The notes beneath the pieces are model-generated. The model was not told the DNA's origin. It saw only the letters and a list, made by a program, of their open reading frames with translations, and did no database searches. 25,815 nt of DNA. Origin: Deltaproteobacteria bacterium. GTDB taxonomy: Bacteria > Myxococcota > Myxococcia > SLRQ01. This document shows, piece after piece, positions 1 through 18,235 of this stretch. Each line of letters opens with the position of its first letter. Position 1 is the first letter of the stretch. The DNA lies in assembly GCA_007128675.1 (NCBI GenBank), contig SKWY01000161.1, forward strand, positions 1 to 25,815. Reading direction: 5' to 3'. The position numbers were made by a program, and so were the translations under genes.

Positions 1-1413
1 AACCTCTCCAGAACCCGCCATCGCCTTGGCGCGCGCGGCGAGGTTCACCGGCTCTCCATACACGTCGGCCCCGAATAAACGAACTTCTCCGGAAGATGCA
101 CCTACTCGAAGTCGCACGGCGAGGTCCTCGGCGGCCTCTCGAGTGTACCGCGCGGCACGGTCCTGCATTGCCGCCGCCGCTTTCATTGCCGAGGTCGGAG
201 AGGAGAAGGTGAAGAGCTGACTTTCCTGGATAGTCTTGACCTTCGTCCCGTCATGCTTCTTCGCGACGGGGACCGTCAAGGCCTCGAATATTGCCGCCAG
301 AGAGGCTTGGTCCTGGTATGAGAGCCGAGTCATCCTCTCCGCCAGATCCTCCATGGAGACGAAAACTACCGTCAGGTTGGCGGTGCGCATGCCCGCTGCT
401 GGCGGCTCCGAGGCATCCCTGCATTCGAGCCCGCTGCTCGTTTCTTCGGCCTCGCTCGAGGGAACCTCGGAAGATGAAGAGGGCTCGTCGGTCGAAGGGT
501 CACTTTCGGTCTCGGACGAGCCATGACCGGTTTCATCTTGGCTGCTCGCGAGGGACCAAGCCAGGGAGAGAGCGCCGGCCGCGGCCTCGGCGGTTGGGAA
601 CCGTTGTGAGGGACGTTTGGCGAGGAGCTGGTGTACCACCTTGGCGATCTCGCGCCCGGTCGGGGAGATCCGTTCGACCAGAGGAGGAGGATCCTCCTGT
701 GCATGCTGGGCGAGAACCTTCCTCGGAGTATCGCCCTTGAAAGGCAGTCGCCCCGAGAGCATCCGATACGCCAGCACTCCGAGCGAGTAGAGATCGCTTC
801 GAGCGTCGAGAGGTTGCCCCATGGCTTGCTCTGGTGAGACGTACTCCGGTGTGCCGACCACCATGCCGGCGGCCGTGAGGGGTGTCCTGTTGGAGTCTTC
901 CACGCCCATGAGCCGGGCGATCCCAAAGTCCACCACTTTGACGCGGCCCTTCGACGAGATGATCACATTGTCTGGCTTCAGATCCCTGTGAATGACTCCG
1001 AACTCATGGGCATGGCCAACGGCGGCGCAGATCTGGACGAGCACATCGACAGACTCTTCCAAGGGAAGCCCAACTCCCCCGGCGAGCATCAGCTCGAGGC
1101 TCTTACCTTCGACGAGGTCCATCACCAGAAATGGTCGATCCTGATGAGCTCCGTAGTCGAGAACTCTCACTATGCCGGGGTGATCCAGACGAGAGAGGAT
1201 CTTCGCTTCGTCCTCGAAGCGGCGTAGGACGACGGGGTCACTGACGCCGGCTCGTAGAACCTTCACCGCCACGGGGCGGTTCAAAGAGATTTGAACGCCT
1301 CGAAAGACCTCCCCCATCGCGCCATCACCGATGCGGGAGTCCAGGCGAAACCTCCCATCGAGGATAGCTCCCACGAGGTTCGTGCCGCCGCCCAATGGAG
1401 AGGAGGAGGTCAT
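1..1413 (-). CDS. Ser/Thr protein kinase fused to a C-terminal class III nucleotidyl cyclase homology domain (C2-like half-site). Partial: the 3' end runs off the window start.
   Basis: I reverse-translated this myself: the minus-strand frame with codon first bases at positions that are 0 mod 3 is open from ATG 1413-1411 down to position 1 (471 codons, no stop). It is absent from the ORF track only because it has no stop inside the window. Kinase motifs: Gly loop IGDGAMGEVF, VAVKVL Lys, HRDLKPDN (rc of 961-996), DFGIA, GTPEYVSPE. An acidic Ser-rich linker follows. The CHD shows FSSP, LRVGASSGEV and DVYGEPVNLAARA (rc of 1-120). Confidence 0.85.
   Translation of the reverse strand, partial: MTSSSPLGGGTNLVGAILDGRFRLDSRIGDGAMGEVFRGVQISLNRPVAVKVLRAGVSDPVVLRRFEDEAKILSRLDHPGIVRVLDYGAHQDRPFLVMDLVEGKSLELMLAGGVGLPLEESVDVLVQICAAVGHAHEFGVIHRDLKPDNVIISSKGRVKVVDFGIARLMGVEDSNRTPLTAAGMVVGTPEYVSPEQAMGQPLDARSDLYSLGVLAYRMLSGRLPFKGDTPRKVLAQHAQEDPPPLVERISPTGREIAKVVHQLLAKRPSQRFPTAEAAAGALSLAWSLASSQDETGHGSSETESDPSTDEPSSSSEVPSSEAEETSSGLECRDASEPPAAGMRTANLTVVFVSMEDLAERMTRLSYQDQASLAAIFEALTVPVAKKHDGTKVKTIQESQLFTFSSPTSAMKAAAAMQDRAARYTREAAEDLAVRLRVGASSGEVRLFGADVYGEPVNLAARAKAMAGSGEV
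558..1374 (-). other. Protein kinase catalytic domain within CDS 1..1413 (approximate bounds)
   Basis: Gly-rich loop through the APE motif, located by my own translation. All canonical catalytic residues (VAVK Lys, αC Glu, HRD, DFG) are present. Confidence 0.75.
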
Positions 1414-2771
1414 TCCTCGTGGTCTCCCTGCTCCAGGGCCGCTATTGCTCTTCGGGCCGCGCCTCGGAAGTCACAGCGAAGCCGGCCCAATCCCAGGGGA
1501 CCACGGGAACGAGAGGCCTCGGCCTCGAGGGCCTTCTCAAGTGCCGGGATGACGTCTTTCTGGCCCGTCAGGGCAAGGGTGTTCGCCGCAGCTCGGCGAA
1601 CGGGACAGCTGTCGTCCTCGAGAGCCTTCACCATTTGTTTCTTGATGGTTCGGTGTCCCGCATACGCGCCGGGCTCTGCGGATATTGCGCCGCGATAGGC
1701 GGCCGCGGCGTCGACGGGACGGTCCTTGCTCCATGCAAGATAGCCGCGCAGGTAGTGGACGTCCGCGTCGCGTTCAGGTCCTTCTTGCGAAAGCTCTTCG
1801 ATTGCTTCGATGGCCTCGGTGTAACGCGCCTCGTTCACGAGGGACTCGATGGATCCTATGGGATCCAACGTAAGGGGGCATTTGATTAGAAGCAGGGTGA
1901 GCGAACCCAAGAGTACCGCCAACAAGCCGCCGCATGCATAGAGGGTTGCTCGCCGGGGAAAGCCGCTGCCGGGTGATTCCAGAAGCTTGTCCTTGAGCTT
2001 CTTGCCGACCGCTTGTCCAACCGCCTCGATCTCTCCGGTGAGGCGGCGCCCATGGCCGCTCGTCGGCTCCGAGGAGCTCTTGACGTTGCGGTCTATCCAA
2101 TCCGCGTCGATGATGTCGAGCTGGGGGGGAGGAGGCAGGGTGCGATTGCCATACGGCGGGCCATCGGCGGCATGAGTGACGCGAGCGGCGCGAAACAGCC
2201 TTACCGCCTCGGGAAGGCCAGGCGCTTGACGTAGGCCGATCTCCTCGGTTGGGGCCTCCTTCCTGTTCATGGCCAGGTAGACCGACTCCGCTATTACGAC
2301 CTCCGAGGCTTCGGCAAAGCCCTCGAGCGCGAGGGCGCTGGTTACGGCCTCGCCGATTAGCTCCTTGTTGCTGACCTGGAGCTCTCCCAAGGTGAGCACG
2401 GCGCGGACCTCTATACGCTGGGTCGAAGGAACCTGGCTATTGTAGGCCCATAGACGGTCCTGTATCGCCATGGCGGAGCGGACGGCGTCTGTCGGAGAGG
2501 CAAAGGTAACGAGCCAGGCGTCTCCGATATCCTTCCTGCGGATGCCTCCGAAGAGCTTGACCACGGGTCCGAGAAGGGCCTCGTGGCGAGCGAGCCAACG
2601 GGCGCTCTCCTCTCTGCTTTGAGATGCCGTGCGCTCGGTAAAGCCCTTGATGTCCGTCAAGAGGACGGTCAGGTTCTCCGTGCGAAAGCTCGTCCGAAAA
2701 ATGCCGCTCATACCCTCGTTGCCTAGCCAGCGGAGATAGCCGCTTACTCGTGCGTCCCGGTACTCCGCCAA
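1410..2771 (-). CDS. Class III adenylyl/guanylyl cyclase homology domain protein (C1-like half-site) with a hydrophobic/TM segment and C-terminal HEAT/PBS-lyase-like repeats
   Basis: 453-aa ORF. The CHD shows LTVLLTDIKGFT (metal Asp), GGIRRKDIGDAWLVTF (Lys + second metal Asp) and RIEVRAVLTLGEL. The hydrophobic stretch is LYACGGLLAVLLGSLTLLLI. The C-terminus has HEAT-like repeats (RRAAANTLALTGQKDVIPALEKALE). The TGA stop at 1412-1410 overlaps the ATG of the downstream kinase gene (ATGA). The start is TTG 2771, which is the 5'-most possible because an in-frame TGA lies immediately upstream. An internal ATG at 2711 is an alternative start. Confidence 0.8.
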   Translation of the reverse strand: MAEYRDARVSGYLRWLGNEGMSGIFRTSFRTENLTVLLTDIKGFTERTASQSREESARWLARHEALLGPVVKLFGGIRRKDIGDAWLVTFASPTDAVRSAMAIQDRLWAYNSQVPSTQRIEVRAVLTLGELQVSNKELIGEAVTSALALEGFAEASEVVIAESVYLAMNRKEAPTEEIGLRQAPGLPEAVRLFRAARVTHAADGPPYGNRTLPPPPQLDIIDADWIDRNVKSSSEPTSGHGRRLTGEIEAVGQAVGKKLKDKLLESPGSGFPRRATLYACGGLLAVLLGSLTLLLIKCPLTLDPIGSIESLVNEARYTEAIEAIEELSQEGPERDADVHYLRGYLAWSKDRPVDAAAAYRGAISAEPGAYAGHRTIKKQMVKALEDDSCPVRRAAANTLALTGQKDVIPALEKALEAEASRSRGPLGLGRLRCDFRGAARRAIAALEQGDHEE

Positions 2772-2857
2772 TCATCATTATTCTCGACCAGCAATGGCCA
2801 AGATACTAGCGCTTGCCATCAGGGTCGAGATCCCGTTAGATCCCGGCTTCCAAATTC

Positions 2858-3646
2858 TTGGGGGTGGCCGTGTCAGGGTTCCTCGATCACTTCGTTGCAT
2901 TTCCGACGGTTATCTTCACCGTTCTGCTCGGCATTCTACTGCTCTACTGGCTTCTAGTGATCGTGGGAGCACTCGGTATGCCGTCGGTCGATATCGACTC
3001 TGGCCTTGATAGTGGGCTGGAGGGCATCGGAGACGGGATTGGCGGCGCGGAAGGATTCGACGGGATTGGCGAAGCGGCCGAAGGCGTCGGCGAAGGGGCG
3101 TCGGGCCTTCTTTCGGGTCTCTTTCACGCATCCAAACTGGGAACGGTCCCCGTCACCGTGGCCACGAGCCTTCTGGTTTTTTGGGTGTGGCTCTCCAGCA
3201 TGTTTGGCAGCATCCTCCTTCGTCCCTACTTGCCCGACTGGGGCGCGGCGACGTTGGGCCTTCTCGTTATTCTCCCGCTCTCCTTCATCACGGGTCTGAT
3301 TCTGACCTCCCTCGTAGTCAGGCCGCTTGGGCCGTTGTTCGTGGTTCACGCGGCTCCGAGCAGACGGCAACTCGCGGGGCGCATTTGCGAGGTGAGGAGC
3401 GGAAGCGTGACCTCGGATTTTGGCCAGGCCGAGCTGGCGGACGGCGGGGCGGGCCTGATTCTCTCGGTGCGTTGTGCGAAGGAGAACGACCTGAAGCGAG
3501 GAGATCTGGTGGTCATAGTCTCCTATGACGAAGAGAAGGACACGTACGACGTCGAGCCCGTCGACTGGCTCGAGCCGGGCGAGCGCGTAGGTCGCCATGA
3601 GGCTCAAAGGATTATCCAAGAGATGAGAAAGGCAGGAAGGCTCTAA
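2858..3646 (+). CDS. NfeD-like membrane protein (short NfeD/YuaF type) that partners with SPFH/flotillin
   Basis: The N-terminus has hydrophobic helices. A Gly/Asp/Glu-rich acidic loop follows. More TM helices come next. The C-terminal OB-fold pattern resembles YuaF/NfeD (GRICEVRSGSVTSDFGQAELADGGAGLILSVRCAKENDLKRGDLVVIVSYDEEKDTYDVEPV). The TAA stop overlaps the ATG of the flotillin gene (TAATG). The start is TTG 2858 per the ORF track. GTG at 2864 or 2870 are alternatives. Confidence 0.7.
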   Translation: MGVAVSGFLDHFVAFPTVIFTVLLGILLLYWLLVIVGALGMPSVDIDSGLDSGLEGIGDGIGGAEGFDGIGEAAEGVGEGASGLLSGLFHASKLGTVPVTVATSLLVFWVWLSSMFGSILLRPYLPDWGAATLGLLVILPLSFITGLILTSLVVRPLGPLFVVHAAPSRRQLAGRICEVRSGSVTSDFGQAELADGGAGLILSVRCAKENDLKRGDLVVIVSYDEEKDTYDVEPVDWLEPGERVGRHEAQRIIQEMRKAGRL

Positions 3647-5748
3647 TGTCCGAACAACTGAACTACACTATTCCAGAGGCCTGGTTGCTCGTTGGGACCG
3701 CGATTCTAATTGGCTTCTTCCTGCTCCTTGGCTTCGGCCTCATGGTGAAGGCCTTCTACCGGAAGGTAGACCAGGGCAGAGCCCTCATCATAAACAAGCT
3801 GACGGCAGAGCCCACGGTGACGTTCACGGGAGGCCTCGTCCTTCCGATCATCTATCGCGCGGAGTTGATGGACATCTCCTTGAAGACGATCGAGATCGAT
3901 CGTCGGGGCAAGGAGGGCCTGATCTGCCAGGACAACATTCGCGCGGACATCAAGGTGACGTTCTATGTTCGAGTGAACAAGACGAAGGAGGACGTCCTCA
4001 AGGTTGCGCAGGCGGTGGGGTGCGAGCGAGCTTCCGACCAGCGCACTTTGGAAGAACTCTTCGTAGCCAAGTTCTCCGAGGCTCTGAAGACGGTCGGCAA
4101 GCGTCTCGACTTCGAGGACCTCTACCAGAAGCGAGACGACTTCAAGGATGCGATAGTTCGGGTCATTGGACAGGATCTGAACGGGTATCTCCTCGAGGAC
4201 GCGGCCATCGACTATCTAGAGCAGACGCCGGTGGAGCTGCTCGATCCAAAGAACATCCTCGATGCCCAGGGCATCAGGAAGATAACGGAGCTGACGACTC
4301 GGCAGAACATCTTCACCAACGACTTCCGTCAGACAGAGCGTAAGGAGATAAAGCGGCAGGATGTGGAAGCCGAAAAGGCCGTCCTCGATCTAGAGCGTGA
4401 CGAGGCCGACGCGCGCGCCACGCAGGCCCGTGAGGTCGATACGATGCGTGCGAGGGAGGAGGCGGAGACCCGCAAGATTCAAGCGGAGGAGCAGGCTCGT
4501 TCGGAGTCGGCGAGAATCAAGGCCGCCGAGCAGGTAGCGATCGAGAACGAGAACAAGATGCGACAGATCGAGATTGCCGCCAAGAATCGGGAGCGCGCCG
4601 TGCTTGTCGAGGGCGAGAAGGTTGAACGTGATCGCGCTTTGGAGCAGGTCGCTCGCGAGCGGCAGGTCGATCTCGAGACGATAGAGAAGGACAAGGCGAT
4701 AGAGGTCGAGAAGAAGGAGATCGCCGATGTGGTGCGCGAGCGCGTGGCCGTCGAGAAGAAGGTCGCCGAGGAGGAGGAGAGAATCAAGGATGTTCGCGCC
4801 ATCGAGGAGGCCAGACGTATGAAGGCCGTGCAGATCACGACAGCCGAAGCGGAGGCCGAGGAGAAGCTGGTCAAGGACATAAAGGAGGCCGAGGCCGCCG
4901 AGGAGGCGGCGAAGTTCAGGGCCCGGGAGCGGCTCGTTCTGGCTGATGCCGAGCTAGAGGCATCGGAGAGGGAGGCACAGGCCAAGATTCGGCTAGCCGA
5001 AGGTGTTCAGGCCGAGAGAGCCGCGCCTGGTCTCGGGAACGTCAGGGTTCAGGAAGCGCAGGCCGTGGCAATAGAAAAGCAGGGCCGCGCCGAGGCGATG
5101 GTCGTTCAGGAAAAGGGTCTTGCCGAGGTGCGGGTCCGCGAGCAAGACGCCCAGGCAGTGGAGAAGCTCGGGAAGGCCGAGGCCGTCTCGATTCAGGCAA
5201 GATTGGAGGGAGAGTCGGCGGGTCTTGCGAAGAAGGCGGAGGCGATGAAGCTTCTGGACGACTCCACTCGTCACCACGAGGAGTTCCGGATCCGGTTGGA
5301 GCAAGAAAAGGAGGTCAAGCTCACGCACATAGAGGCGAGGCGGCAGATCGCCGAGCAGCAAGCCATCGCGATGCAGAAGGCCTTCCAGACAGCCAAGATC
5401 AACATAGTCGGCGGTGATGGAGACTTCTTCGACAGGTTCATCAACGCGGTGGGCGTGGGACAGTCGCTCGACGCGGCCATCGAGCAGTCGAGTACGCTGC
5501 AGACAGGGCTTGGCGACTATCTTACCGGTGACCGCAGCTTGCCGGAGGACCTGCGTGAGATCCTCTCCAACCCCGCCTTCTCGAGTCAGGCTCTCCAGAA
5601 CACCTCCGTATCGGCTTTTCTATTGCATTTGATGCGGCGAGCCGATGATGAGACGAAGGAAGAGATAGCTCAGCTGCTGAAGCAGGCGGAGAAGCTGAAG
5701 GCCACAGTCGAGCCGGCGAAGGGCGGCGGCACCAAGAAGTCGCAGTAG
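3646..5748 (+). CDS. Flotillin-like SPFH/band-7 protein (FloT/YqiK family)
   Basis: 700 aa. It has an N-terminal TM helix. The SPFH domain covers roughly aa 55-230. A long E/A/K/R coiled coil follows with flotillin EA repeats (KAEAVSIQARLEGESAGLAKKAEAMKLL). The C-terminal region (AFQTAKINIVGG...) resembles the FloT tail. Confidence 0.9.
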   Translation: MSEQLNYTIPEAWLLVGTAILIGFFLLLGFGLMVKAFYRKVDQGRALIINKLTAEPTVTFTGGLVLPIIYRAELMDISLKTIEIDRRGKEGLICQDNIRADIKVTFYVRVNKTKEDVLKVAQAVGCERASDQRTLEELFVAKFSEALKTVGKRLDFEDLYQKRDDFKDAIVRVIGQDLNGYLLEDAAIDYLEQTPVELLDPKNILDAQGIRKITELTTRQNIFTNDFRQTERKEIKRQDVEAEKAVLDLERDEADARATQAREVDTMRAREEAETRKIQAEEQARSESARIKAAEQVAIENENKMRQIEIAAKNRERAVLVEGEKVERDRALEQVARERQVDLETIEKDKAIEVEKKEIADVVRERVAVEKKVAEEEERIKDVRAIEEARRMKAVQITTAEAEAEEKLVKDIKEAEAAEEAAKFRARERLVLADAELEASEREAQAKIRLAEGVQAERAAPGLGNVRVQEAQAVAIEKQGRAEAMVVQEKGLAEVRVREQDAQAVEKLGKAEAVSIQARLEGESAGLAKKAEAMKLLDDSTRHHEEFRIRLEQEKEVKLTHIEARRQIAEQQAIAMQKAFQTAKINIVGGDGDFFDRFINAVGVGQSLDAAIEQSSTLQTGLGDYLTGDRSLPEDLREILSNPAFSSQALQNTSVSAFLLHLMRRADDETKEEIAQLLKQAEKLKATVEPAKGGGTKKSQ

Positions 5749-5760
5749 AGGGCTACGTCA

Positions 5761-7848
5761 ATGGCGGCCCCACAAGCCAAGGATACAGAGGCGCTCGACG
5801 AGGCGGCGCTCGAAGGCGGAAGCTACGAAGTCTTGCGCCAGCGCCTCCTCGAGCAGGCGCGGATTTTGGCGGAAAAAGCTGCTCGCCTGAACGAGCGACG
5901 TCAGGAGAGCTTTGGTGGAGTGGAGCTATCCATCATCGGCAACGAGCGCATCCGCACGGAGAACAACTGTGTGCCCCAGGACATGGTGCAGGTGCAGGGC
6001 ATGCTCCTGTTTGGCTACAACGTCTTCGTGGGGCTGCGCAAGGAGACGCGTGTCTCCGACGTCTTCGCATTGCACCGGTTCGAGCACGAAGAGGAAGGCT
6101 TCGACCTCTCCGCCGTGCCGCTAGAGGAGGCTCCTGCTAGTCTCTTGCGTCACGAAAGGTTCGTTCGAGAGTTCGAGGAACTCTACCGCTACTACTCGAG
6201 CACTCGCCTTTCGCTTCTTCGTCGCACCGAGTCCAGGCTGCTTGCCGTTTTTCGTGTCGGAGCCGGCGAGAAGGATGTGAGGGTCTTCAGGTGGGAACTC
6301 GATGGCGCTGGAGAAGCCACCTACATCGATAATCGAGGCGAGAGGGAGCACGTCTTCCCTAGATCTCACGACTTCGAGTGGATCGCCACTGGCAGGGAAG
6401 ACCAAGTCAGGGGCCCGCATCCACATGTATCCATCTTGGAGGAGGTCTTCGTCGAGGCGGTCGGTGGCGACCTGACAGTAAAGGTCGAGAACAACACCGA
6501 GGATGGACAGGGAATATACGCCGAGCCGGTGGACGAACCAAGCCAGGGACTGGACGACGGTCAGATCGAGTACGCCAAGGTCGGCAGCCTGATACTGATT
6601 CGGGTGTTGCCGTTTCGCGAGAGCGAATGGCGTCACCTCGTCTTCAATACTCGCACCAAGCAGGTAGCGCGCATAGATGCGATTGGCCAGGCCTGTGTCT
6701 CCTTGCCCGAGGATCAGGGGATCATCTTTCCGGGGGGCTACTACCTGCAGACCGGGGACTATCGCCTCTTCGATACGGACACGAGCGGTCTTCGCTTCAA
6801 GAGAGCTATTCGTTCTCCCAATGGCGAGGATGTTCTCTACGTCTTCCACCGGGACAGCGACGGGCATTTTCTCCTCTTTCCGTACAACATTGTGCGCCAG
6901 GAAGTTGCCAGCCACATCAACTGTCACGGTTACAGCCTCTTCGATGACGGCAAGATGGTCGTATTTCGGGCCGTGAGCGACGAGCCGACGCGGGTGCACC
7001 CCGTCCAGATATGGCAGACGCCTTTCAGCTCCGCCGAGCATGCCGCGGGGCACGCGGTCGATGCTTCCTTCCTAGGACGAATCGGCAACTCCGATCTGGT
7101 GAGGGGCGTCTCCGATTGCTTCACCATCTGCAGGATGGCGCGGTCGGAAGAGGCGGGCCGGGAGACCTACGAGGATTTGGTCGGCCAGGTTCAGCGGGTG
7201 ATCGATGCATACTACTGGCTGTCGGACTCCGAGGTGGAGGACATAGCCTCCAACCTCGCGGAGCTGAAGGCGACCTCCGAGCTGATATTGGACGAGTACG
7301 AAAAGGTCGTCGCGATGAGAGCCAGGGCAAAGGAGGCTCTCTTTACCGCACAGGAGAGAGCCCGGGCCTTGCTGCGAGAGATTCGCCCCGACACATGGGA
7401 GCGAGTCGACGACTTCTTGAAGGCCATGACGGGGCTGCGCACCGAGCGAGGCCACGTAATCACCGTCAAGGATGTTCGCTACGTGGACGTGGCCAGCCTT
7501 GATTCCCTGGAGGAGGAGATTGCCGCCGCTTTCGATGAGGTCAGCGAGGCTGCTGTCTCCTTCTTGCTGAACAAGGACGCATTCGCTTCGATGCGGGAGG
7601 ATCTGGACAGGCTCTCCAGCAGAATCGCCGAGGCGAGGGGCTCCGTGGAGCTGACCGAGCTATTCGAGCGTCTCGACGAGCTTGCCGATTGTCTCACGGT
7701 GCTCGGCGAGACGGTAGGTGGACTCGAGGTCGGCGATCCGACGGCGCGTACAGATTCTTCAAGACGTCTCGGAGGTCTTCTCTCTTCTGAACCGTGTTCG
7801 AGCAACGCTCGCAAACCGCCGCCAGGATCTGCTCGGGCGCGAGGGTAG
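5761..7848 (+). CDS. Large conserved hypothetical protein with an N-terminal coiled coil, a beta-rich middle and a C-terminal helical region. The last ~130 nt are probably not genuinely coding (see the frame transition with the next ORF).
   Basis: 695-aa ORF. A GAGGG SD lies 8 nt upstream of ATG 5761, which is 12 nt after the flotillin stop. GC3 is high through ~7720, then third-codon positions turn A/T-rich up to the stop at 7848. I recognise no domain. Confidence 0.55.
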   Translation: MAAPQAKDTEALDEAALEGGSYEVLRQRLLEQARILAEKAARLNERRQESFGGVELSIIGNERIRTENNCVPQDMVQVQGMLLFGYNVFVGLRKETRVSDVFALHRFEHEEEGFDLSAVPLEEAPASLLRHERFVREFEELYRYYSSTRLSLLRRTESRLLAVFRVGAGEKDVRVFRWELDGAGEATYIDNRGEREHVFPRSHDFEWIATGREDQVRGPHPHVSILEEVFVEAVGGDLTVKVENNTEDGQGIYAEPVDEPSQGLDDGQIEYAKVGSLILIRVLPFRESEWRHLVFNTRTKQVARIDAIGQACVSLPEDQGIIFPGGYYLQTGDYRLFDTDTSGLRFKRAIRSPNGEDVLYVFHRDSDGHFLLFPYNIVRQEVASHINCHGYSLFDDGKMVVFRAVSDEPTRVHPVQIWQTPFSSAEHAAGHAVDASFLGRIGNSDLVRGVSDCFTICRMARSEEAGRETYEDLVGQVQRVIDAYYWLSDSEVEDIASNLAELKATSELILDEYEKVVAMRARAKEALFTAQERARALLREIRPDTWERVDDFLKAMTGLRTERGHVITVKDVRYVDVASLDSLEEEIAAAFDEVSEAAVSFLLNKDAFASMREDLDRLSSRIAEARGSVELTELFERLDELADCLTVLGETVGGLEVGDPTARTDSSRRLGGLLSSEPCSSNARKPPPGSARARG

Positions 7849-10800
7849 GGTCGAGTTCGGGGCCCAGTTCGCTCTGTTCAGTCAGACCGTTGAGAGCGCT
7901 CTAGCCCTATGTGACGAGCCTGACAAGTGCGACGAGCAGCTCTCGCGGGTGCTGGTGACCTTGGAGGAGCTGGAGAGCCGCTTTTCCGACTTCGATGAGT
8001 TCGCGGAGCAGCTGACGGAGAAGCGCGAAGAGGTCTATGAGGCGTTCACGGGCCGAAAGCAGCAGCTACGAGAGGGGCGGCAGCGCCGAGCCGCGAATCT
8101 TGTCGTGGCGGCTGACAGGATATTCCAAGGGATTGAGCGGCGAGCCGGAACCTTCAAGGATCAGGATGAGCTGAACGGCTTCTTCGCTTCGGATCCGATG
8201 GTTCATCGCTTGAGAGGGCTCGTGGGGCAGCTGCGTGAGCTCGATGATCCGGTAAAGGCGGACGAGATCGAGGGACGCTTGCAGTCTGCCAGACAGGATG
8301 CGCTGCGAACGCAGCGCGATAGGGCGGATCTCTTCGAGGAAGGGCAGGCCGTCGTTCGTCTGGGAAGACACAGGTTCAATGTTTCCACCGAGCAGGTCGA
8401 GTTGACCTTGGTGCCTAGAGGCGAGGAGATGATGCTCCATCTCTCGGGCACGGACTACTACGAGAAGCTCGAGGATCCCGAGCTGGAGGCCGCGCGGCAT
8501 CTTTGGCATCAGCAGTATGTATCCGAGTCCGAGGATGTCTATCGGGCCGAGTATCTTGCGGCCCAGATTCTGTTCACGGCCGAGGCGGCGCGGGAAGGGC
8601 TTTCCCTCGCCGGGTTGCACGAGGCCTACCGACAGGACGGCGGCCTGCTCGAGCTCACCCGTCAGTTCGCGGCCGATAGGTACGAGGAAGGCTACGAGCG
8701 AGGTGTTCACGACTCGGACGCCGCGCGAATTCTGGAGAAGCTTCTCGCAATGCGAGAGACGGTGGGCCTGCTTCGGTTCCCGCCGGAGCCCAGGGCGCTG
8801 GCATGTCTGTTCTGGGCGCTACACGAGGACGAGAACGAGCTGGGCAGCATCGCCCGAAGAGCCGGTAGCCTCGGTCGTCTCCGCAATGCCTTCTCACAGG
8901 AGGTGGGCCTCGCCGCGCTCGGTGATGAGCTCGGCCGCAGGATCGATGCATTCCTGGAGAAGGCGGGGATAGAGCACGGCCGCGGTGACGTGCTCCTCGC
9001 GGGACGTTACCTCGCCGAGGAGCTGACTCGCGAGAATCCTCGCTTCGTGGTGGGCCAGGACGCGGTGGTGTTGCAAGAGGCTTTGCTTCGCCACCTCGAA
9101 CAGCACGGGATGCGGACGGCTTTCGAGCAGGACCTCGACGCCCTTCGCCCGTCGCCTCGTCAGGTGCTAGAGCTATTGGTGGCTTGGCTCGAGGGGTTCG
9201 TGCAGAGCCGAGAAGGAAAGAAACACGCGGATAGGAGGGAGTCCATCCTGGCGGCGGCGGTGCTGTTCCTGACCGAGGGGCGTCTGGAAAGAGAGGTCTC
9301 GAGCGCGCGCACTCGGATGGAAATCGAAGGCCTTCTGGGTCAGCATCCGAGAGTGAGTTCGGGAAGGATCGAGGTCAGGCTCGAGGCCTTCTTGGAGCGT
9401 CTAGCTGAATTCATCGAGACGAGGGCTCCAGAGTACAGGGCATACCGAAAGGAGTCCGCCCTCATCCTCGAGCGTGAGCGCCAGCGCTTGAGGCTCGATG
9501 AGCTCAAGCCCAAGGTGCTCACCTCCTTCGTTAGGAACCAGCTCATAAACGACGTCTACCTTCCGCTGATTGGCGGCAATCTCGCCAAGCAGCTTGGCGC
9601 CGCCGGCGCTGATAGGCGGACGGACCAAAGCGGTCTTCTGCTTCTGATCTCGCCGCCCGGTTACGGCAAGACGACGCTGATGGAGTATGTCGCGAGCACT
9701 CTCGGGCTCATATTCGTCAAGGTCAACGGTCCTTCTCTTGGGCATGCCGTGACCTCCCTCGATCCGGCGGAGGCGCCCAACGCCACGGCTCGCCAAGAGG
9801 TGGAGAAGATCAATCTCGCTCTCGAGATGAGCAATAACGTCATGTTGTACCTGGACGATATTCAGCACACCCACTCCGAACTCTTGCAGAAGTTCATAAG
9901 CCTATGTGACGCGCAGCGGCGTGTCGAAGGTGTCTGGAAGGGGCGAACGCGGACATACGACATGCGCGGCAAGCGTTTCGCGGTGGTCATGGCTGGAAAC
10001 CCATATACGGAGGCGGGCGAGCGCTTCCAGCTTCCCGACATGCTCGCCAATCGAGCGGATACCTACAACCTCGGCGATATCCTGGAAGGAAAGGATCAGC
10101 TCTTTGCGCAAAGCTACATCGAGAACGCGCTCACATCGAACCCGGTGCTGAGGCCCTTGTCCGGAAGGGAGCCACGTGATGTGCGACTCTTCATTCGGAT
10201 GGCCAGGGGCGAGGAGATTCCGACCAGCGATCTCTCTCACAACTACTCGGCGGCCGAGATCGAGGAGATCCTCGCGGTTCTACGGCATCTGACGAAGGTC
10301 CAAGCGGTCTTACTCGAGGTGAACGCCCAGTACATTCGTTCGGCCAGTCAGGACGACAGGTATCGCACCGAGCCTCCATTCAAGCTGCAGGGCTCATACA
10401 GAAACATGGCCCGCATCGCGGAAAGAGTCGTCCCGGCCATGACGCCCGAGGAGGTCGAGCGATTGATAGACGATCACTACCTCGGAGAGTCCCAGACCTT
10501 GACCACGGGAGCGGAGCAGAATCTGTTGAAGCTCGCCAAGATGCGCGACCGAGTGAGCGAGGAGCAGGCCGAGCGCTGGGAGGAGATCAAGAGGGGCTTT
10601 GCTCGTCATCAGATCATGGGCTCCAGCGAGGAGGATCCGACCGTTCGAGCCCTCGGGCAGTTGGCCGCTCTCACCGAGCAGGTCAGTGCGCTACGCGATG
10701 TGGTGGCCTCCGCGGCAAAGGCCGGTCGCGTCGAGGCAAGGCAATCAAAGGATGTCGAGAAGAGCGAGAAGGCCGAAGCTCGTAAGAGGAGCCTCGAGGA

Positions 10801-11530
10801 GAGCGCCGAGCGCGAAGCCAAGGAGAGGCTCGAGGCCATGCGGATGCAGTCCGAGCTTCACCTAGAGGCATCCACAAAGGCAGCGCTACTGCAGGGAGAG
10901 CAGCAGGCCAAGGCCTTTGGAGAGGCGGCACGGGTTCAGGCGCACGCTCAGATGGAGGCGGCCAGGCTCCAGGTAGAGGCCAAGATGGAAGCGGCCAAGA
11001 CTCACGCTCGGGCTCAGGCGCAGATCCAATCGAGGCTCGCCGAGGTGCTCGTTCCGAGGCTCGAGTCTCTGGAGAAGGCATTGGCCAAGGTGGCCGAGTC
11101 CGCCGCCAAGGCATCGAAGGCCGCCGCCAAATCCAGCCCATCGGCGACAGGCGAGGCTCACTCTGCTGCAGCGGTTGATCTATCGCCCCTGATCGAAAAG
11201 CTCTCGGACACGCTCGAGGCCCTGGCCGACCGAAAGGTGGAGCTTCAGATTCCTCCGGATGCTTTCATGGGCCCGATGATGCCGCCGCTCGCGCTGTCAC
11301 AAGGTTCCATCGAATCGGGTTCGGCGCCGGGTGAGGGCGAGGAAGGCCAGCCGTTGGGTCCACCTGGTTATTCCCATCAGCTCCGGCTCATTCAGGATGC
11401 GCTCATGCCACTTCGCCAGTTGTCTCGTCGCCAGATCCGAGACGGCGAGGGGAAGATGAGTGCGATGCAGGTTTGGCGACAAGTGAACGAGGCCTTGCAG
11501 GTGGTCCAGGCGGCCGCATTTTGGAAATAG
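7718..11530 (+). CDS. Very large protein with a central MoxR-like AAA_5 ATPase domain and a C-terminal flotillin-like EA-repeat coiled coil
   Basis: 1270-aa ORF. Walker A is LLISPPGYGKTTL (~9645-9676). Walker B is VMLYLDDIQH (~9840-9869). There is a helix-2-insert-like segment. Sensor-1 is FAVVMAGNPYTE (~9984-10013). An Arg-finger-like LANRADTYNLGD follows. The C-terminus has AEA-rich repeats. The GTG start at 7718 lies immediately after an in-frame TAG, with no convincing SD. Confidence 0.75.
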   Translation: MDSRSAIRRRVQILQDVSEVFSLLNRVRATLANRRQDLLGREGRVEFGAQFALFSQTVESALALCDEPDKCDEQLSRVLVTLEELESRFSDFDEFAEQLTEKREEVYEAFTGRKQQLREGRQRRAANLVVAADRIFQGIERRAGTFKDQDELNGFFASDPMVHRLRGLVGQLRELDDPVKADEIEGRLQSARQDALRTQRDRADLFEEGQAVVRLGRHRFNVSTEQVELTLVPRGEEMMLHLSGTDYYEKLEDPELEAARHLWHQQYVSESEDVYRAEYLAAQILFTAEAAREGLSLAGLHEAYRQDGGLLELTRQFAADRYEEGYERGVHDSDAARILEKLLAMRETVGLLRFPPEPRALACLFWALHEDENELGSIARRAGSLGRLRNAFSQEVGLAALGDELGRRIDAFLEKAGIEHGRGDVLLAGRYLAEELTRENPRFVVGQDAVVLQEALLRHLEQHGMRTAFEQDLDALRPSPRQVLELLVAWLEGFVQSREGKKHADRRESILAAAVLFLTEGRLEREVSSARTRMEIEGLLGQHPRVSSGRIEVRLEAFLERLAEFIETRAPEYRAYRKESALILERERQRLRLDELKPKVLTSFVRNQLINDVYLPLIGGNLAKQLGAAGADRRTDQSGLLLLISPPGYGKTTLMEYVASTLGLIFVKVNGPSLGHAVTSLDPAEAPNATARQEVEKINLALEMSNNVMLYLDDIQHTHSELLQKFISLCDAQRRVEGVWKGRTRTYDMRGKRFAVVMAGNPYTEAGERFQLPDMLANRADTYNLGDILEGKDQLFAQSYIENALTSNPVLRPLSGREPRDVRLFIRMARGEEIPTSDLSHNYSAAEIEEILAVLRHLTKVQAVLLEVNAQYIRSASQDDRYRTEPPFKLQGSYRNMARIAERVVPAMTPEEVERLIDDHYLGESQTLTTGAEQNLLKLAKMRDRVSEEQAERWEEIKRGFARHQIMGSSEEDPTVRALGQLAALTEQVSALRDVVASAAKAGRVEARQSKDVEKSEKAEARKRSLEESAEREAKERLEAMRMQSELHLEASTKAALLQGEQQAKAFGEAARVQAHAQMEAARLQVEAKMEAAKTHARAQAQIQSRLAEVLVPRLESLEKALAKVAESAAKASKAAAKSSPSATGEAHSAAAVDLSPLIEKLSDTLEALADRKVELQIPPDAFMGPMMPPLALSQGSIESGSAPGEGEEGQPLGPPGYSHQLRLIQDALMPLRQLSRRQIRDGEGKMSAMQVWRQVNEALQVVQAAAFWK
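9600..10150 (+). other. AAA_5 (MoxR/dynein-related) ATPase core within CDS 7718..11530 (approximate bounds)
   Basis: The motif order is Walker A, Walker B (hhhhDD), an insertion, then a sensor-1 containing the NP dipeptide, then a conserved Arg. This is the order typical of the MoxR/AAA_5 clade. Confidence 0.65.
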
Positions 11531-11631
11531 AGATCCATCCCCGTTGTGGAGGCGTTCTTGGGACGGTAGGGCTCAGAGGCCCCGGCTCATCATCTCTTCG
11601 CGGGACGTGAAGAGCCCTGTATCATGAGCGT

Positions 11632-12417
11632 ATGAACACGAGCGAGACGCGGGTGAATCTCGAGCTAGCCATGGACGTGGCGCGAAGGGCCGTGAAGTCG
11701 GCTGGGGACGCGGCGCTTCGTCACTTTGGGGCCAATATCTCTATTGAGCGAAAGGCCGATAGATCGCCGGTCACGGCGGCGGATCGAGAGGCCGAGGCCG
11801 CCACTCTCCAGGTAATCAGGGCCGCCTTTCCCGATCATTCGATTCTCGGTGAGGAGACGGGCGAGCATGCCGGGAGCTCGGCTGCTCGCTGGATCATCGA
11901 TCCCATAGATGGAACGAAGGGCTTCACCAGGGGAGGGTCGCTTTGGGGACCATTGGTCGCGTTGGAAATCGAAGGCGAGGTCCTGGCAGGCGCCATCGCC
12001 CTGCCTGCGCTAAAAAAGACTTACTACGCGGCTCGTGGTCTCGGAGCCTTCCGCGATGGTAGGCCTCTTCGCGTCTCGAGCGTCGAAGATTGGAGCGAGG
12101 CCACATTGAGTCTTGGCGAGATTCAGAACCTTCTTGCTGTGCCGTACCGTGAGCAGGTCATCAACCTCATCTCCAGCGCTTCGGCCACGCGTTGCGAAGG
12201 TGATCTCGCCTCATGCGCAATGCTCCTGGAGGGGCGAGCGGACGTTTGGCTCGAGGCAGGAGTTCGGATCTGGGATCTCGCTCCCCTCAAGGTATTGGTC
12301 GAGGAGGCCGGAGGGCGCTTCACCAGCTTCTCCGGCGAAGAAGTAGTCGACGAGGCCTCCGCGGTTGCAACCAACGGCCGCATTCACGATCACGTGCTGG
12401 CCGTGTTGTCCGGCTGA
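11632..12417 (+). CDS. Inositol monophosphatase family protein (SuhB/HisN-like phosphatase)
   Basis: 261 aa. It carries the IMPase signature WIIDPIDGTKGF, a TAAD motif, and the fold-typical EETGE metal-binding region. Confidence 0.85.
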   Translation: MNTSETRVNLELAMDVARRAVKSAGDAALRHFGANISIERKADRSPVTAADREAEAATLQVIRAAFPDHSILGEETGEHAGSSAARWIIDPIDGTKGFTRGGSLWGPLVALEIEGEVLAGAIALPALKKTYYAARGLGAFRDGRPLRVSSVEDWSEATLSLGEIQNLLAVPYREQVINLISSASATRCEGDLASCAMLLEGRADVWLEAGVRIWDLAPLKVLVEEAGGRFTSFSGEEVVDEASAVATNGRIHDHVLAVLSG

Positions 12418-12537
12418 TGACCGGGCTGATCGATGTGTCTGATGGAGAGGGCGGGTGATTGGCGGACCGCCAGAGGCGAGGACCTGCTAGGACACCGAGG
12501 TTTTTATCGAAGTCACGCCAACGGAGGTGCTATACCG

Positions 12538-13536
12538 ATGAGCATGAAATCGCGAGCCGCTTTGACACTGTGCTTTCTCATGATCGCTGTTGCTCTGTTT
12601 TCCTGCTCGAGGCCTGACGCCGTCACTAGGCCCGACGAGCTTCCCGAGGCGGAGGCTGCCCCGGCGGAACCGGAGGCACAGCCCGAGGCAGCCCCCGAGA
12701 CCGACGAGATAGCTCTGGGGCGAGAGCTGATCGACGCGGGAGCCGAGCCGAGAGAGCTTCTCTCCTACGATCTCGAACCTCACGTGTCTCGCTTCTGGTA
12801 TCGCATGCGTGTCGAGCTCACGGTGGATGACGAATCACCCGATGTTCCCGAGATGGGTTTTCTCTATCTCTGGTCGGTCACCCCATGCGAGACGAGCGAG
12901 GGTCACGCCAGGGTGGAGGTAGAGATTGAAGATGTGGAGATAGATACTTCGGCTCTCGCGGAAACGATGACTCCCGAGATGTTGGAATTCATGGAGGAGC
13001 AGTTTCGAGAGATGGTCGGTCCAGTAGGCGTCATCGAGCTTGATGAGGAAAGAAACGTGGTCTCTGTCGAGATGACGGCGCAGGCTCGCAGGGACTCACT
13101 CATAGATGTCGCCGAGATGATCAATCAGCTCGCCCATCAAGTGCCCACGCCCCCACTCGAGCCGGTAGGTGTTGGAGCCAGGTGGTCGATGACACTGGAG
13201 ACTGTTCAGCAGAGCATGCCCGTGGTCATGAAGGTCGACGAGACCTTGGTCGAGCGCGAGGGAAGCCGGGTTCGTATCGACCAAGAGTACTCGTTGGTTG
13301 GAACGGCTGATGGCGCCGTGGTGTCTGGCGCCGCTCTTCTGGAAGACTACCAGATGAACGGATCCGGCCAGATCTCGATGGATATGAAGACCCTGTCCTT
13401 GACCAGCGAGAGCCACATGAGAATGGAGAACCGAATGCGGATGCGTCCAGCAAGCGGAGTGGGGGGGCAGCCCGAGCCTGGCGATTTTGTGGATGTAATA
13501 ATGCTGCTCGAGATAGTGATGATACCGGTGGAGTGA
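12538..13536 (+). CDS. Hypothetical lipoprotein with an acidic Pro/Glu/Ala-rich N-terminal linker
   Basis: The track ORF begins at 12433. The in-frame ATG at 12538 is preceded by GGAGGTG (12523-12529). It opens a signal peptide MSMKSRAALTLCFLMIAVALFSC with a lipobox-like LFSC. Confidence 0.6.
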   Translation: MSMKSRAALTLCFLMIAVALFSCSRPDAVTRPDELPEAEAAPAEPEAQPEAAPETDEIALGRELIDAGAEPRELLSYDLEPHVSRFWYRMRVELTVDDESPDVPEMGFLYLWSVTPCETSEGHARVEVEIEDVEIDTSALAETMTPEMLEFMEEQFREMVGPVGVIELDEERNVVSVEMTAQARRDSLIDVAEMINQLAHQVPTPPLEPVGVGARWSMTLETVQQSMPVVMKVDETLVEREGSRVRIDQEYSLVGTADGAVVSGAALLEDYQMNGSGQISMDMKTLSLTSESHMRMENRMRMRPASGVGGQPEPGDFVDVIMLLEIVMIPVE

Positions 13537-13730
13537 TTGGGGCTGCCGATATCGCCGTCTTGCTTCGCGAGGCCCCGTCGTCATGGGGAGGACCGCGGGG
13601 GATCTGGATGAATCTTGGATGGGCTGCGTTATTGCCGGGCCCTCGAGCGCGAGCGGGCCGCCTGCAAATCGGTCCCGATAGGCGCGAATACGTATGCCGC
13701 CTCGCCCTCGGGAACTAGTAGTCTCGTCGT

Positions 13731-13738
13731 TGTCGACA
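13731..13738. promoter_or_regulatory. TGTCGACA perfect palindrome 28 nt upstream of the blaI-like start. Candidate autoregulatory operator overlapping a -35-like TTGTCG/TCGACA.
   Basis: Seen directly at 13731-13738. An extended -10-like TGcTAACTT lies at 13751-13759. The ATG is at 13766. Confidence 0.3.
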
Positions 13739-13765
13739 TGGGATCGATTGTGCTAACTTCTTGGC

Positions 13766-14242
13766 ATGTCTGATGGAAAAGAGAGCCCCTCAACGGCCGG
13801 TTTGAGCCGCCGGACAAGACAGATCCTGGAGGTAGTCTACCGGCTCGAGCGCGCTACGGCGGCGGAGATTCAGCAAGCTCTTCCCGATCCGCCTAGCTAC
13901 TCCGCGGTTAGAACGCACCTTCGGATTCTGGAGGAGAGGGGCCATTTGACCCATGTCTCCGAGGGGCCTCGATATGTCTACACTCCCAAGGTTCCTCGCG
14001 AACGAGCCTCTCGCGGAGCCATTCGCCACTTGGTGGATACCTTTTTCGAGGGCTCCGTTGCTCACGCGGTGGCCGCGCTCTTGGACACCTCGAGCTCGAA
14101 GCTATCGCCCGAGGACGTGGAGCATCTGAAGGTTCTCATCGAGGATGCGAGAAAGGAATCTGCTTCACGGTCCCAAGATGCCGCCGCGCGACCTGCGAGA
14201 AGCCGCCGCGGCGCATCGAAACGTAAGGGGGAAGGCAAGTGA
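13766..14242 (+). CDS. BlaI/MecI/CopY-family (penicillinase-repressor-type) winged-helix transcriptional repressor
   Basis: 158 aa. The N-terminal wHTH pattern is RQILEVVYRLERATAAEIQQAL...SAVRTHLRILEERGHL. A C-terminal dimerisation helix follows. An M56 BlaR1-like peptidase gene overlaps its stop (GTGA at 14239-14242). Confidence 0.8.
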   Translation: MSDGKESPSTAGLSRRTRQILEVVYRLERATAAEIQQALPDPPSYSAVRTHLRILEERGHLTHVSEGPRYVYTPKVPRERASRGAIRHLVDTFFEGSVAHAVAALLDTSSSKLSPEDVEHLKVLIEDARKESASRSQDAAARPARSRRGASKRKGEGK

Positions 14243-15444
14243 GTCTATTGCTCGAGTCCACCATTAGGTGGTCGGTGCTTCTCCTGCTCGTCTTTGCGTT
14301 TTGTTTTTTTTGGCGAGGTTCCGCGGCCGTAAGGCACCTCGCCTGGACCTTTGGCGCCGTAACCGGTCTGCTCTTTGTCGTGATCGGGTTGCTTGGACCG
14401 ACCTGGACCCTGACTCTGCCATGGTTGCAGGCTGCCGCGGCCGATCCCGTCGTGACCACCAAGGCTTCCTCGTCCTCGTCGGGGGCCCCGGTCGCTGCCG
14501 CATTCTTTTGGCCGAACCTTCTTCTCCTAGGCTGGCTGCTGGGATCGCTCTTGCTGATGGGTTGGACCTTGCTCGGGGTCGCCCTCTCCGCGCTTCTCTT
14601 GCGGGAGGCGACCGAAGTCCGAAGGCCCCTTCCCGATGTCGCGGAAGGCATTTGCGTGCGCTCGAGCAGCCGGGTCTCAGGCCCGGTCACAGTGGGGTTG
14701 TTGCGACCTGTGATAGTAGTGCCAAAACGCGCCTTGTCATGGACGCCGGTTCGTTGGGATGCGGCGCTGGCTCATGAGGCGGCCCATGTGCGGCGCAAGG
14801 ATGTCCTGATACGGTGCCTTGGCGCGCTCGTCCGGGCCGTTCATTGGCCAAACCCCTTGGCATGGGTGATGCTCTCGCGCATTCGTCACGAGGCCGAGAT
14901 GGCCGCCGACGAGTCGGTCTTGGGCTTGGGTGTAAGGCCGGCCGATTACGCCGAGTTGCTTCTCGAGGAGAACGATTACCTGGGCCGTGGCCTTGGACCG
15001 CTGGTCTCCGTCTCCATGAATCGAGGAGATCTCTCCCGTCGAATCAAATGGGTGCTTGGAAGATCGCGGCGGGCTCCGCCGCCCCGTGGATACGTTGCCA
15101 TTGGCGCCCTGTTGGCAATGTTTTTCGCAGTTCCCGCGGCGATCGTCACCTTCGTACCTCCCGAAGCCGAGCCGGCCGAAACAGCCGGCGCGGCAGGTGA
15201 TGGCGCCGATTCATCTGCGGTCGCGTCGGCTCCACGGACCATTCACGCCCGCGTGGGAGATCTTATTTCGGAGCGCTTCGATGGCATCTCCAGGATTGCC
15301 ATATCCAACCCCTCGAGCCTCGACGTTCGGCATCCAGTGGATGGCGAGATCGTAATGGAGGCGCTGGCCCCCGGTGATTCCAGCGTCCTGATTTGGCTTG
15401 GGGGGCAGGAGCCGGCCGAGAGGCTGATCGTCGAGGTCGAGTAG
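14239..15444 (+). CDS. BlaR1/MecR1-like peptidase M56 signal transducer with a noncanonical C-terminal secretin/pilus-N-like sensor domain
   Basis: 401 aa. It has N-terminal TM helices. The zinc motif is HEAAH (AHEAAHVRRKD) with a downstream EMAADES Glu. A final TM helix comes next. Then there is a ~100-aa extracellular tail (RIAISNPSSLDVRHPVDGEIVMEALAPGDSSVLIWL) instead of a penicillin-binding domain. Confidence 0.8.
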   Translation: MSLLLESTIRWSVLLLLVFAFCFFWRGSAAVRHLAWTFGAVTGLLFVVIGLLGPTWTLTLPWLQAAAADPVVTTKASSSSSGAPVAAAFFWPNLLLLGWLLGSLLLMGWTLLGVALSALLLREATEVRRPLPDVAEGICVRSSSRVSGPVTVGLLRPVIVVPKRALSWTPVRWDAALAHEAAHVRRKDVLIRCLGALVRAVHWPNPLAWVMLSRIRHEAEMAADESVLGLGVRPADYAELLLEENDYLGRGLGPLVSVSMNRGDLSRRIKWVLGRSRRAPPPRGYVAIGALLAMFFAVPAAIVTFVPPEAEPAETAGAAGDGADSSAVASAPRTIHARVGDLISERFDGISRIAISNPSSLDVRHPVDGEIVMEALAPGDSSVLIWLGGQEPAERLIVEVE

Positions 15445-15458
15445 GAGGACACATCTAC

Positions 15459-15818
15459 TCATCCATCCGTCACGGTCACGTGAACGGACACCTTGGAGTC
15501 GTCGGGAAGCCATATTAGGACGCTGGCCTCGCCGGAGGACAAGCCCTTCAGGAGCACGTGCCCCGAAGAGTCCACACGAGTGTCCAATGTGTCCGGATTG
15601 CTGATGGCTACTCGGGTCACGGGCCCGTAATCGAGGCTCACCTCTTCACCCACCACGAGCACCACGGTATCCATGGCCTCTCTATCATGCCGCTCATCAG
15701 CGCCGGCGCTGTGACCAACGAGGCCGGCGAGCAGAAGGCTGCTCACCAAGATGATCAGGCGGATGGCGCCTGGCCGTAATACTCGCAAACTCTCTCTCTT
15801 GCCTTTTCGGTCGTTCAT
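15459..15818 (-). CDS. Small secreted protein carrying a pilus-formation/secretin N-terminal-like beta domain (paralogous to the BlaR1-like C-terminal domain)
   Basis: 119 aa. The signal peptide is RLIILVSSLLLAGLVGHSAGA. The domain is VSLDYGPVTRVAISNPDTLDTRVDSSGHVLLKGLSSGEASVLIWLPDDSKVSVHVTV. The gene is convergent with the M56 gene and separated from it by 14 bp. Confidence 0.6.
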   Translation of the reverse strand: MNDRKGKRESLRVLRPGAIRLIILVSSLLLAGLVGHSAGADERHDREAMDTVVLVVGEEVSLDYGPVTRVAISNPDTLDTRVDSSGHVLLKGLSSGEASVLIWLPDDSKVSVHVTVTDG

Positions 15819-15890
15819 CTCGTCTCTCCCTGTGGGGTTGTCGTTGGTCTTCTTGGGGTCAGCCTCAATAAGAAAGCTCGATTGGCGGAG

Positions 15891-15926
15891 GCTGCTAATA
15901 ATTTAGCAGCAGGCTAAAATTTTAGC
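15891..15926. promoter_or_regulatory. Tandem palindromes in an AT-rich divergent intergenic region. Candidate operator for a dimeric regulator.
   Basis: GCTGCTAA-taat-TTAGCAGC (15891-15910; 8-bp perfect arms, 4-bp spacer) is followed by GCTAAAATTTTAGC (15913-15926; perfect 14-bp palindrome). The two share a GCTAA/TTAGC core. The surrounding 450 bp is markedly AT-rich relative to the window. Confidence 0.35.
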
Positions 15927-16211
15927 AAGAGCAATCCTTGAAAAGCTCTGGCGCTTCCAGCATTCCGAAAGCTTGGCGCGACCTAGTCGGCGAGGCGCGG
16001 CGATCCCTTGGGCCCGTGTCCTCGGGCCGGCCTAGCCCCCGCCTCGCCTCGAAAAACTGAGGGCAGCCTCCAAGCGACTGACCTTCGAGTCACAGCCGCT
16101 AACAAGAGAATAAGGTTAGGAAAGAGAGCCCCTTCCTCTAAGCCCCCGTGTTTACGGGAATGAAGGCCGGCGGAGCCGGCGAAATGCCCAGGCGAACCAA
16201 CTAGGCCCGGC

Positions 16212-16227
16212 TCTTGCTTGCTTGCTT
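16212..16227. repeat. Short tetranucleotide tract, (CTTG/GCTT) ~3.5-4 copies, 43 bp upstream of the vWA gene start
   Basis: The sequence is tCTTGCTTGCTTGCTTa at 16212-16227. Confidence 0.5.
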
Positions 16228-16269
16228 ATCGAAAGACTAATTGGGGCCCACAACAGATAGGAGCAAGGA

Positions 16270-17853: not shown

Positions 17854-17880
17854 TATCGAGTCGATGGAAGCCAGGGGGGG

Positions 17881-17923
17881 GCCTCGCGGACCATGTAGCG
17901 TCCGCGAGGCTTTCTTCGTCTTG
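17881..17923 (+). terminator. Rho-independent terminator downstream of the vWA gene
   Basis: Perfect 11-bp stem GCCTCGCGGAC / GTCCGCGAGGC with an 8-nt loop, followed by TTTCTTCGTCTTG. It lies 28 nt after the stop codon. Confidence 0.7.
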
Positions 17924-18235
17924 CAAACGAACTCTCTTCAGGCTCGTGTTTCCTCCGGCGCCGATAGCGCGTATTGTCTCGCGCGTGGAGAGGACTGGCT
18001 CCAGCGAGGGAAGGATGCCGTTGATGGCGGCATCGAGTGCTTTCGGGCTGCTGCTTCCAGCTCATGCATGCCGGCCCTTTCTGCCCGGCGAAAGCGAGCC
18101 GTGGTCGCGCGGGCTCTCGATGATTCGCCATTCAAGAGGCAGGGCGCCGGTTACAGGTCCATCAATCGGCGCGAGGGCGGCGAGGGAAGAACGACGCCAT
18201 AAAGCGGGCCATCCTGCCCCGGCGGGTGAGAGGCA

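Follow-up and report, generated by a model that had tools for sequence, protein, structure and literature searches.

Two overlapping reading frames in a Myxococcota contig are very probably the halves of one DUF3686-DUF7902-AAA+ ATPase gene

Background

When two long open reading frames (ORFs) overlap in different frames of the same strand, do they represent two genes, one recoded gene, or one gene that has been broken? The question is raised by contig SKWY01000161.1 (assembly GCA_007128675.1) of a Deltaproteobacteria bacterium, placed by GTDB in the Myxococcota (Myxococcia; SLRQ01), of which we analysed positions 1 to 25,815 of the forward strand; this whole stretch of 25,815 nucleotides (nt) is hereafter called the window. 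ORF A (5761..7848, + strand, frame 1) encodes 695 amino acids (aa) and ends in ...PTARTDSSRRLGGLLSSEPCSSNARKPPPGSARARG*, while ORF B (7718..11530, + strand, frame 2) encodes 1,270 aa and begins with a GTG codon directly 3' of an in-frame TAG (7715-7717). The two overlap by 131 nt, and no further stop interrupts either half.

All these features, from the ORF coordinates to the position of the GTG at 7718, had been described in a first-pass annotation made from the sequence alone, and they were confirmed. The same annotation proposed either a single gene interrupted by a +1 shift near 7718-7735 (through a 1-bp insertion, an assembly error or a programmed frameshift) or a real stop at or near 7715. 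We are confident that ORF A and ORF B are two halves of one DUF3686-DUF7902-AAA+ ATPase gene of about 1,920 codons (a product of ~1,923 aa). The part of the earlier proposal that stands is thus the single gene with a net +1 change of frame; its position does not stand, because homology places the break at 7750-7753, about 20-30 nt downstream.

Results and discussion

The ATPase is a single chain in its relatives

A search with the joined protein retrieved 6,302 relatives. The best 120 are without exception single chains, 1,650-1,970 aa long, in which the domains follow the order DUF3686, DUF7902, AAA; they come mostly from Myxococcota and many are named 'DNA repair ATPase', which appears to be a database label only. 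The closest, the metagenomic protein P0001, has 1,905 aa and is 79% identical. In an alignment with 40 homologues, all of them read GDPxAR[T/A][K/Q/R]ILExxSEVF without interruption across the junction; in the window the same stretch is divided between ...GDPTART in frame 1 and (Q)ILQDVSEVF... in frame 2.

At the DNA level, a scan of GTDB with one genome per species gave 504 related loci. Each of the best 80 crosses the junction in one frame (80/80), with 236-242 aligned residues and no stop. The first-pass annotation had suggested aligning orthologues to see whether they are single fused proteins, and had considered that they might consistently encode two proteins with an equivalent overlap: 120/120 of the best homologues and 80/80 of the loci are uninterrupted. 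Among the loci with a complete stop-to-stop ORF, 63 of 65 have at least 1,600 codons. Both exceptions are frameshifted at positions other than that of the window: L059 is broken once, at about 10341-10353, and L075 carries at least five frameshifts between 10395 and 12300. In a further locus, L088, the same gene is shattered into several pieces (2843-10198). Several of the metagenome-assembled genomes (MAGs) in which this gene is frameshifted at unrelated positions look like long-read assemblies.

An exhaustive search of representatives returned 923 clusters, and many of the 150 representatives listed are below full length. Five with 700-790 aa were inspected (P0135, P0139, P0145, P0165 and P0187). 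Four of them cross the junction in frame and then break off within native sequence, for which reason P0135, P0145, P0165 and P0187 are regarded as cut by contig ends; P0139 is frameshifted about 35 residues downstream of the window's junction. The candidate class of natural stand-alone DUF3686 proteins of about 700 aa was therefore rejected, its five members being contig-end cuts or other frameshifts. These records show that a fragment ORF of this ATPase family in the databases is often the result of a lesion or an error and not of a natural split.

Two nucleotides are missing at 7750-7753

The position of the break was obtained from L001, the DNA of the P0001 locus and hence the closest orthologue. 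Its alignment with window positions 7600-7900 contains exactly one gap, of 2 nt, where the window reads CGTAC--AGATT and L001 reads CGTACCAAGATC; the window sequence that carries the deletion is CGTACAGATT. In a tblastn comparison, P0001 residues 1-665 match 5761-7752 in frame 1 and residues 664-1899 match 7745-11521 in frame 2, so that the hand-over between frames lies at 7745-7752. The orthologous proteins are one residue longer at this point, with R-T-K/Q-I-L against R-T-(frame jump)-I-L in the window. As judged from the L001 DNA alignment and the 40-homologue protein alignment, the lesion is a 2-bp deletion, relative to every orthologue examined, at 7750..7753 on the + strand (...CGT ACA [2 nt] G ATT...), whose net effect on the frame is the same as that of a +1 shift and which disrupts the reading frame conserved among the orthologues. 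The lost bases are ambiguous: the ancestral hexamer could be ACAAAG, ACCAAG or ACACAG.

The composition of third codon positions (GC3, the share of G or C) agrees with a change of frame, as the first-pass annotation had noticed. In frame 1, GC3 is 499/664 over 5761-7752 and 12/31 in the ORF A tail at 7753-7845 (Fisher p = 3e-5); in frame 2 it is 938/1259 over 7751-11527. Frame 2 is already rich in GC3 upstream of the lesion (9/11 over 7718-7750), and because of this the switch had been placed too far upstream. GC3 frame plots locate a frameshift to a few tens of nt; homology narrowed this one to within 4 nt.

The two ORFs can thus be divided into native and non-native parts. The native N-terminal part occupies 5761..7752 (+, frame 1, 664 codons) and holds DUF3686 and the first two thirds of DUF7902. 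The native C-terminal part, 7751..11530 (+, frame 2), comprises the remainder of DUF7902, a long helical region, the AAA+ module and a low-complexity tail rich in Ala, Glu and Lys. The last 31 codons of ORF A (7753..7848, +) are an out-of-frame read-through to the first chance stop, TAG 7846-7848. The leader of ORF B (7718..7750, +) follows from a chance GTG after the frame-2 stop at 7715-7717, and over it the homologues align to frame 1 (...GLEVGDPTAR). None of the 40 aligned homologues has the last 31 residues of ORF A or the first 11 of ORF B.

A split domain in a gene under purifying selection

The division cuts through a conserved domain. Pfam searches place DUF3686 (PF12458) at ORF A aa 36-485 (nt 5866-7215), with 685.4 bits over model positions 2-448 of 448. 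DUF7902 (PF25472; 7576..7825, +, frame 1 then frame 2) is matched in two portions as encoded: model positions 1-60 at ORF A aa 606-665 (7576-7755; 46.9 bits) and positions 58-84 at ORF B aa 10-36 (frame 2, 7745-7825; 27.9 bits). Only when the 2 nt are restored does it become contiguous between DUF3686 and the ATPase, as a single match to positions 1-84 of the 85 in the model, with 85.0 bits. AAA_5, AAA and AAA_22 match ORF B within aa 636-769, a stretch with the Walker A-like motif PPGYGKTT; the AAA+ module is given as aa 641-769 (nt 9638-10024). This half has weak PDB matches to AAA modules of the p97/Rix7 type, and sequence searches found no solved structure for the N-terminal 664 aa. Taken as encoded, the locus spreads over 695 + 1,270 aa the domains that the family carries in one chain of ~1,600-2,000 aa. 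We found no literature on DUF3686, DUF7902, PF12458 or the sample accessions, and no experimental paper on the ATPase family; a search for flotillin, NfeD and 'DNA repair ATPase' likewise gave no paper mentioning this family.

In comparison with L001, the ratio of nonsynonymous to synonymous substitution rates (dN/dS) is 0.14 in the part read in frame 1 and 0.13 in the part read in frame 2, and both halves thus show purifying selection; dS is saturated at this distance, so that a recent loss of constraint would not show in these values. Over the first 31 frame-2 codons that lie within the ORF A tail, differences from L001 number 1, 1 and 20 at codon positions 1, 2 and 3. Because the selection pattern in the tail follows frame 2, the ORF A tail and the first 11 codons of ORF B are not evolved coding sequence. 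Of 417 invariant columns, moreover, the window departs from 7, inside the 0-16 range of a leave-one-out control, and the ATPase gene is therefore not generally decayed.

What would the locus produce as it stands? The 2 nt missing at 7750-7753 would move translation from frame 1 to frame 2, and the locus as encoded would yield a 695-aa N-terminal fragment, in which DUF3686 is followed by a shortened DUF7902 and then by 31 junk residues. Probably little or none of the AAA+ half would be made, because its only start is GTG 7718, which lacks a clear ribosome-binding site: no clear Shine-Dalgarno motif is present upstream of it (GGCGAGACGGTAG), as had been noted earlier. A search of 7400-8100 gave no sigma-70-like promoter. 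Stop-start coupling is unavailable, since GTG 7718 lies 131 nt upstream of the ORF A stop. The 131-nt overlap reflects where stops and a GTG happen to fall and has no function of its own.

Assembly error or recent allele

Whatever its origin, the lesion leaves one gene and no designed overlap. Two origins deserve serious consideration: (i) a local consensus or assembly error, for example at a low-coverage join, towards which we lean slightly; (ii) a true, very recent strain-specific knockout allele, to which we give somewhat less than an even chance.

Both can be examined against an independent assembly of the same strain (ENA ERZ27301262), two contigs of which, L002 (k141_776557) and L005, match the window. 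L002 corresponds to window positions 1-7705, with one mismatch and no gaps, and ends 46 nt before the lesion. The only base in 7,705 nt that differs is a second anomaly, 60 nt upstream of the lesion: at 7691 (+) the L002 codon GGT, for a Gly shared by 40/40 homologues, is TGT (Cys) in the window, with T in place of G. The window therefore contains two damaging changes of its own within 62 nt, flanking the L002 contig end at 7705, while the 7,690 nt farther to the left show no difference. This clustering of the 7691 change and the deletion around the contig end is what inclines us to a local error. The same gene is, in addition, frameshifted at non-homologous positions in other MAGs (L059, L075, L088 and P0139).

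Several observations weigh against an error and in the direction of a real allele. L005 corresponds to window positions 13261-24242 with 11 mismatches and no gaps, which makes 0 indels between the window and the two independent contigs over 18,687 nt. Of the L005 mismatches, 10 of 11 fall at codon position 3 and nine are synonymous; these differences have the pattern of real strain variation, and the window is generally accurate. The assembly does not look generally error-prone, and an error, if there is one, is local. A 2-nt deletion outside a long homopolymer is atypical of short-read errors, and a contig break near the lesion could also mark a real population polymorphism; in fact, the break of the independent assembly at 7705 may reflect either low coverage or polymorphism. 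The two contigs leave 7706-13260 uncovered, so that the lesion stands unverified under either reading.

Further searches returned no independent sequence of this species across the lesion. No record was an exact match to ORF A, ORF B, the inositol-monophosphatase gene (with two start choices) or recC, and exact junction patterns with a gap of 0-6 nt were found neither in GTDB genomes nor in JGI metagenomes. A 360-aa protein query centred on the junction gave no near-identical fragment, its best match being 61% identical, and a JGI scan with the junction peptide recovered relatives of 41-56% only. Neither half shows further signs of decay, such as extra stops or relaxed constraint (at the dN/dS of 0.13-0.14 relative to L001, with dS saturated).

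At 7669-7713, exactly where L002 ends, there is an inverted repeat whose 13-nt arms (CGTCTCGACGAGC / GCTCGGCGAGACG) are 92% complementary and separated by a 19-nt spacer. It may be coincidental or tied to a local sequencing or coverage problem.

Recoding, two genes and the earlier variants

It could also be supposed that the frame change is used by the cell, through a programmed ribosomal frameshift (+1 or -2) or transcriptional slippage yielding both a 695-aa and a ~1,920-aa product. This was among the options of the first-pass annotation, and we consider it very unlikely. Its support is the geometry, a frame-1 ORF that runs into a frame-2 ORF continuing the same protein, together with an AGA codon in the frame-1 tail (7762-7764), which is a rare Arg codon in this 61% GC genome by expectation and not by measured frequencies. 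Against this, the join CGU ACA / G AUU offers no slippery heptamer, homopolymer run, in-frame stop or hungry codon, and no Shine-Dalgarno-like stimulator stands immediately upstream. The 100 nt that follow (7754-7853) fold at -32.1 kcal/mol, compared with a mean of -32.3 for shuffled sequences (z = 0.06), and Rfam gave no match at E <= 1. Nothing relevant emerged near the junction from searches for repeats or for promoter-like and terminator-like sites. Known programmed frameshifts are conserved, and here the shift is found in 0/80 species loci and 0/120 of the best homologues. We infer from this an unprogrammed change of frame.

A shift at the rare-codon context UCA-AGA was considered as a separate candidate and is excluded, since the conserved K/Q-I-L-Q residues would be missing from its product: upstream of it, the frame-2 codons CAG ATT CTT CAA differ from the orthologous AAG ATC CTC CAG by synonymous-type changes only.

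A related idea is that the deletion is real and the enzyme is still functional, either through low-level, non-canonical +1/-2 recoding at ACA-G or through two subunits that reassemble. We give it only a very slim chance; if true, it would provide a natural split experiment on an uncharacterised giant ATPase beside a flotillin-like gene.

A genuine two-gene arrangement, in which a DUF3686 protein and an AAA+ protein are translated separately with a real 131-nt overlap, is still harder to sustain. Both ORFs are indeed long and free of further stops, and ORF B has a possible GTG start at 7718. The split, however, lies inside the conserved DUF7902; the last 31 residues of ORF A and the first 11 of ORF B are out-of-frame junk without a homologue; the substitutions within the overlap fit frame 2 alone; ORF B shows neither a clear ribosome-binding site nor a promoter-like site; and no orthologue split at the window's junction was found.

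The more specific variants of the first-pass annotation were an insertion of 1 bp in the region of 7718-7735 and termination of the upstream gene by a true stop at about 7715. They have in their favour the high GC3 of frame 2 from 7718 and the frame-2 TAG at 7715-7717, but both are refuted, because frame 1 remains homologous to the orthologues through ...GLEVGDPTART (7723-7752), the L001 DNA alignment needs a 2-nt gap at 7751/7752 and none in 7718-7735, and the TAG lies upstream of the lesion in a frame that is non-coding there, frame 1 being the conserved one.

The three-gene module and other genes of the window

The broken ATPase gene is the last of a conserved three-gene set, which extends over 2858-11530 in the window (2858..5748 plus the ATPase) and over 3112-11718 in L001. 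The first gene (2858-3646, +) encodes a 262-aa multi-pass membrane protein without a family match. The second (3646-5748, +) encodes a 700-aa protein with a long charged helical region and a weak likeness to flotillin/SPFH proteins (NCBIfam FloT, E = 3.4e-4, far below the cutoff). The set was also followed in the species loci L008-L087; among the 45 loci with full flanks, the 700-aa protein is found as a same-strand upstream partner in 45/45 and the 262-aa protein in 44/45; both are also present in L001. PADLOC reported no defence-system match, and no solved structure was found by sequence for either protein.

Farther downstream, a recC-like gene (18236-22141; Exonuc_V_gamma, RecC_C) has a 4-nt overlap with an open frame that starts at 22138 and runs off the window end. 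This frame has a Walker A motif of the UvrD/RecB type (AGTGKTFT), and the minus-strand ORFs at 22933-23664 and 24226-25536 are probably spurious because they lie inside it. At 13766-15444, a BlaI-like repressor (Penicillinase_R) is paired, also with a 4-nt overlap, with a BlaR1-like M56 peptidase sensor; the pair is found with 99-100% identity in three other samples (L005, L006 and L007).

Implications and comparison with known systems

The locus is an ordinary frameshift-split gene. In annotation it should be recorded as one frameshifted (pseudo)gene or one corrected coding sequence, not as two overlapping 'hypothetical' proteins, and the 131-nt overlap should be listed neither among long gene overlaps nor among cases of recoding. 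If the deletion is present in the organism, this strain no longer has the AAA+ half of a conserved set of three genes, which would be a minor strain-level observation.

Three kinds of known systems can be compared with it. The nearest are the single-chain proteins of Myxococcota annotated as 'DNA repair ATPase' or AAA family ATPase, including those of Cystobacter fuscus (P0006) and Archangium violaceum (P0013) and the metagenomic P0001. They have the same domain order and the same two upstream genes, and are 53-79% identical over 85-100% of the repaired window sequence; they differ in being uninterrupted ORFs of 1,650-1,970 codons, whereas the window copy, without 2 nt at 7750-7753, is read as 695 + 1,270 aa.

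The second are the genes of MAGs that are fragmented by frameshifts through indel errors of assembly or consensus; in these, as here, one long conserved gene is represented by neighbouring ORFs that overlap in different frames and have junk ends. The window differs from them in having a single lesion, with no other indel in the 18.7 kb compared.

The third are the programmed systems: prfB (release factor 2, RF2) is decoded by a +1 frameshift, and dnaX and insertion sequence (IS) elements by a -1 frameshift. The window shares with them a net frame change between two ORFs that jointly encode one protein, but it lacks their hallmarks, namely a slippery site (CUU UGA C, or A AAA AAG), a Shine-Dalgarno-like or structured stimulator, and conservation across orthologues.

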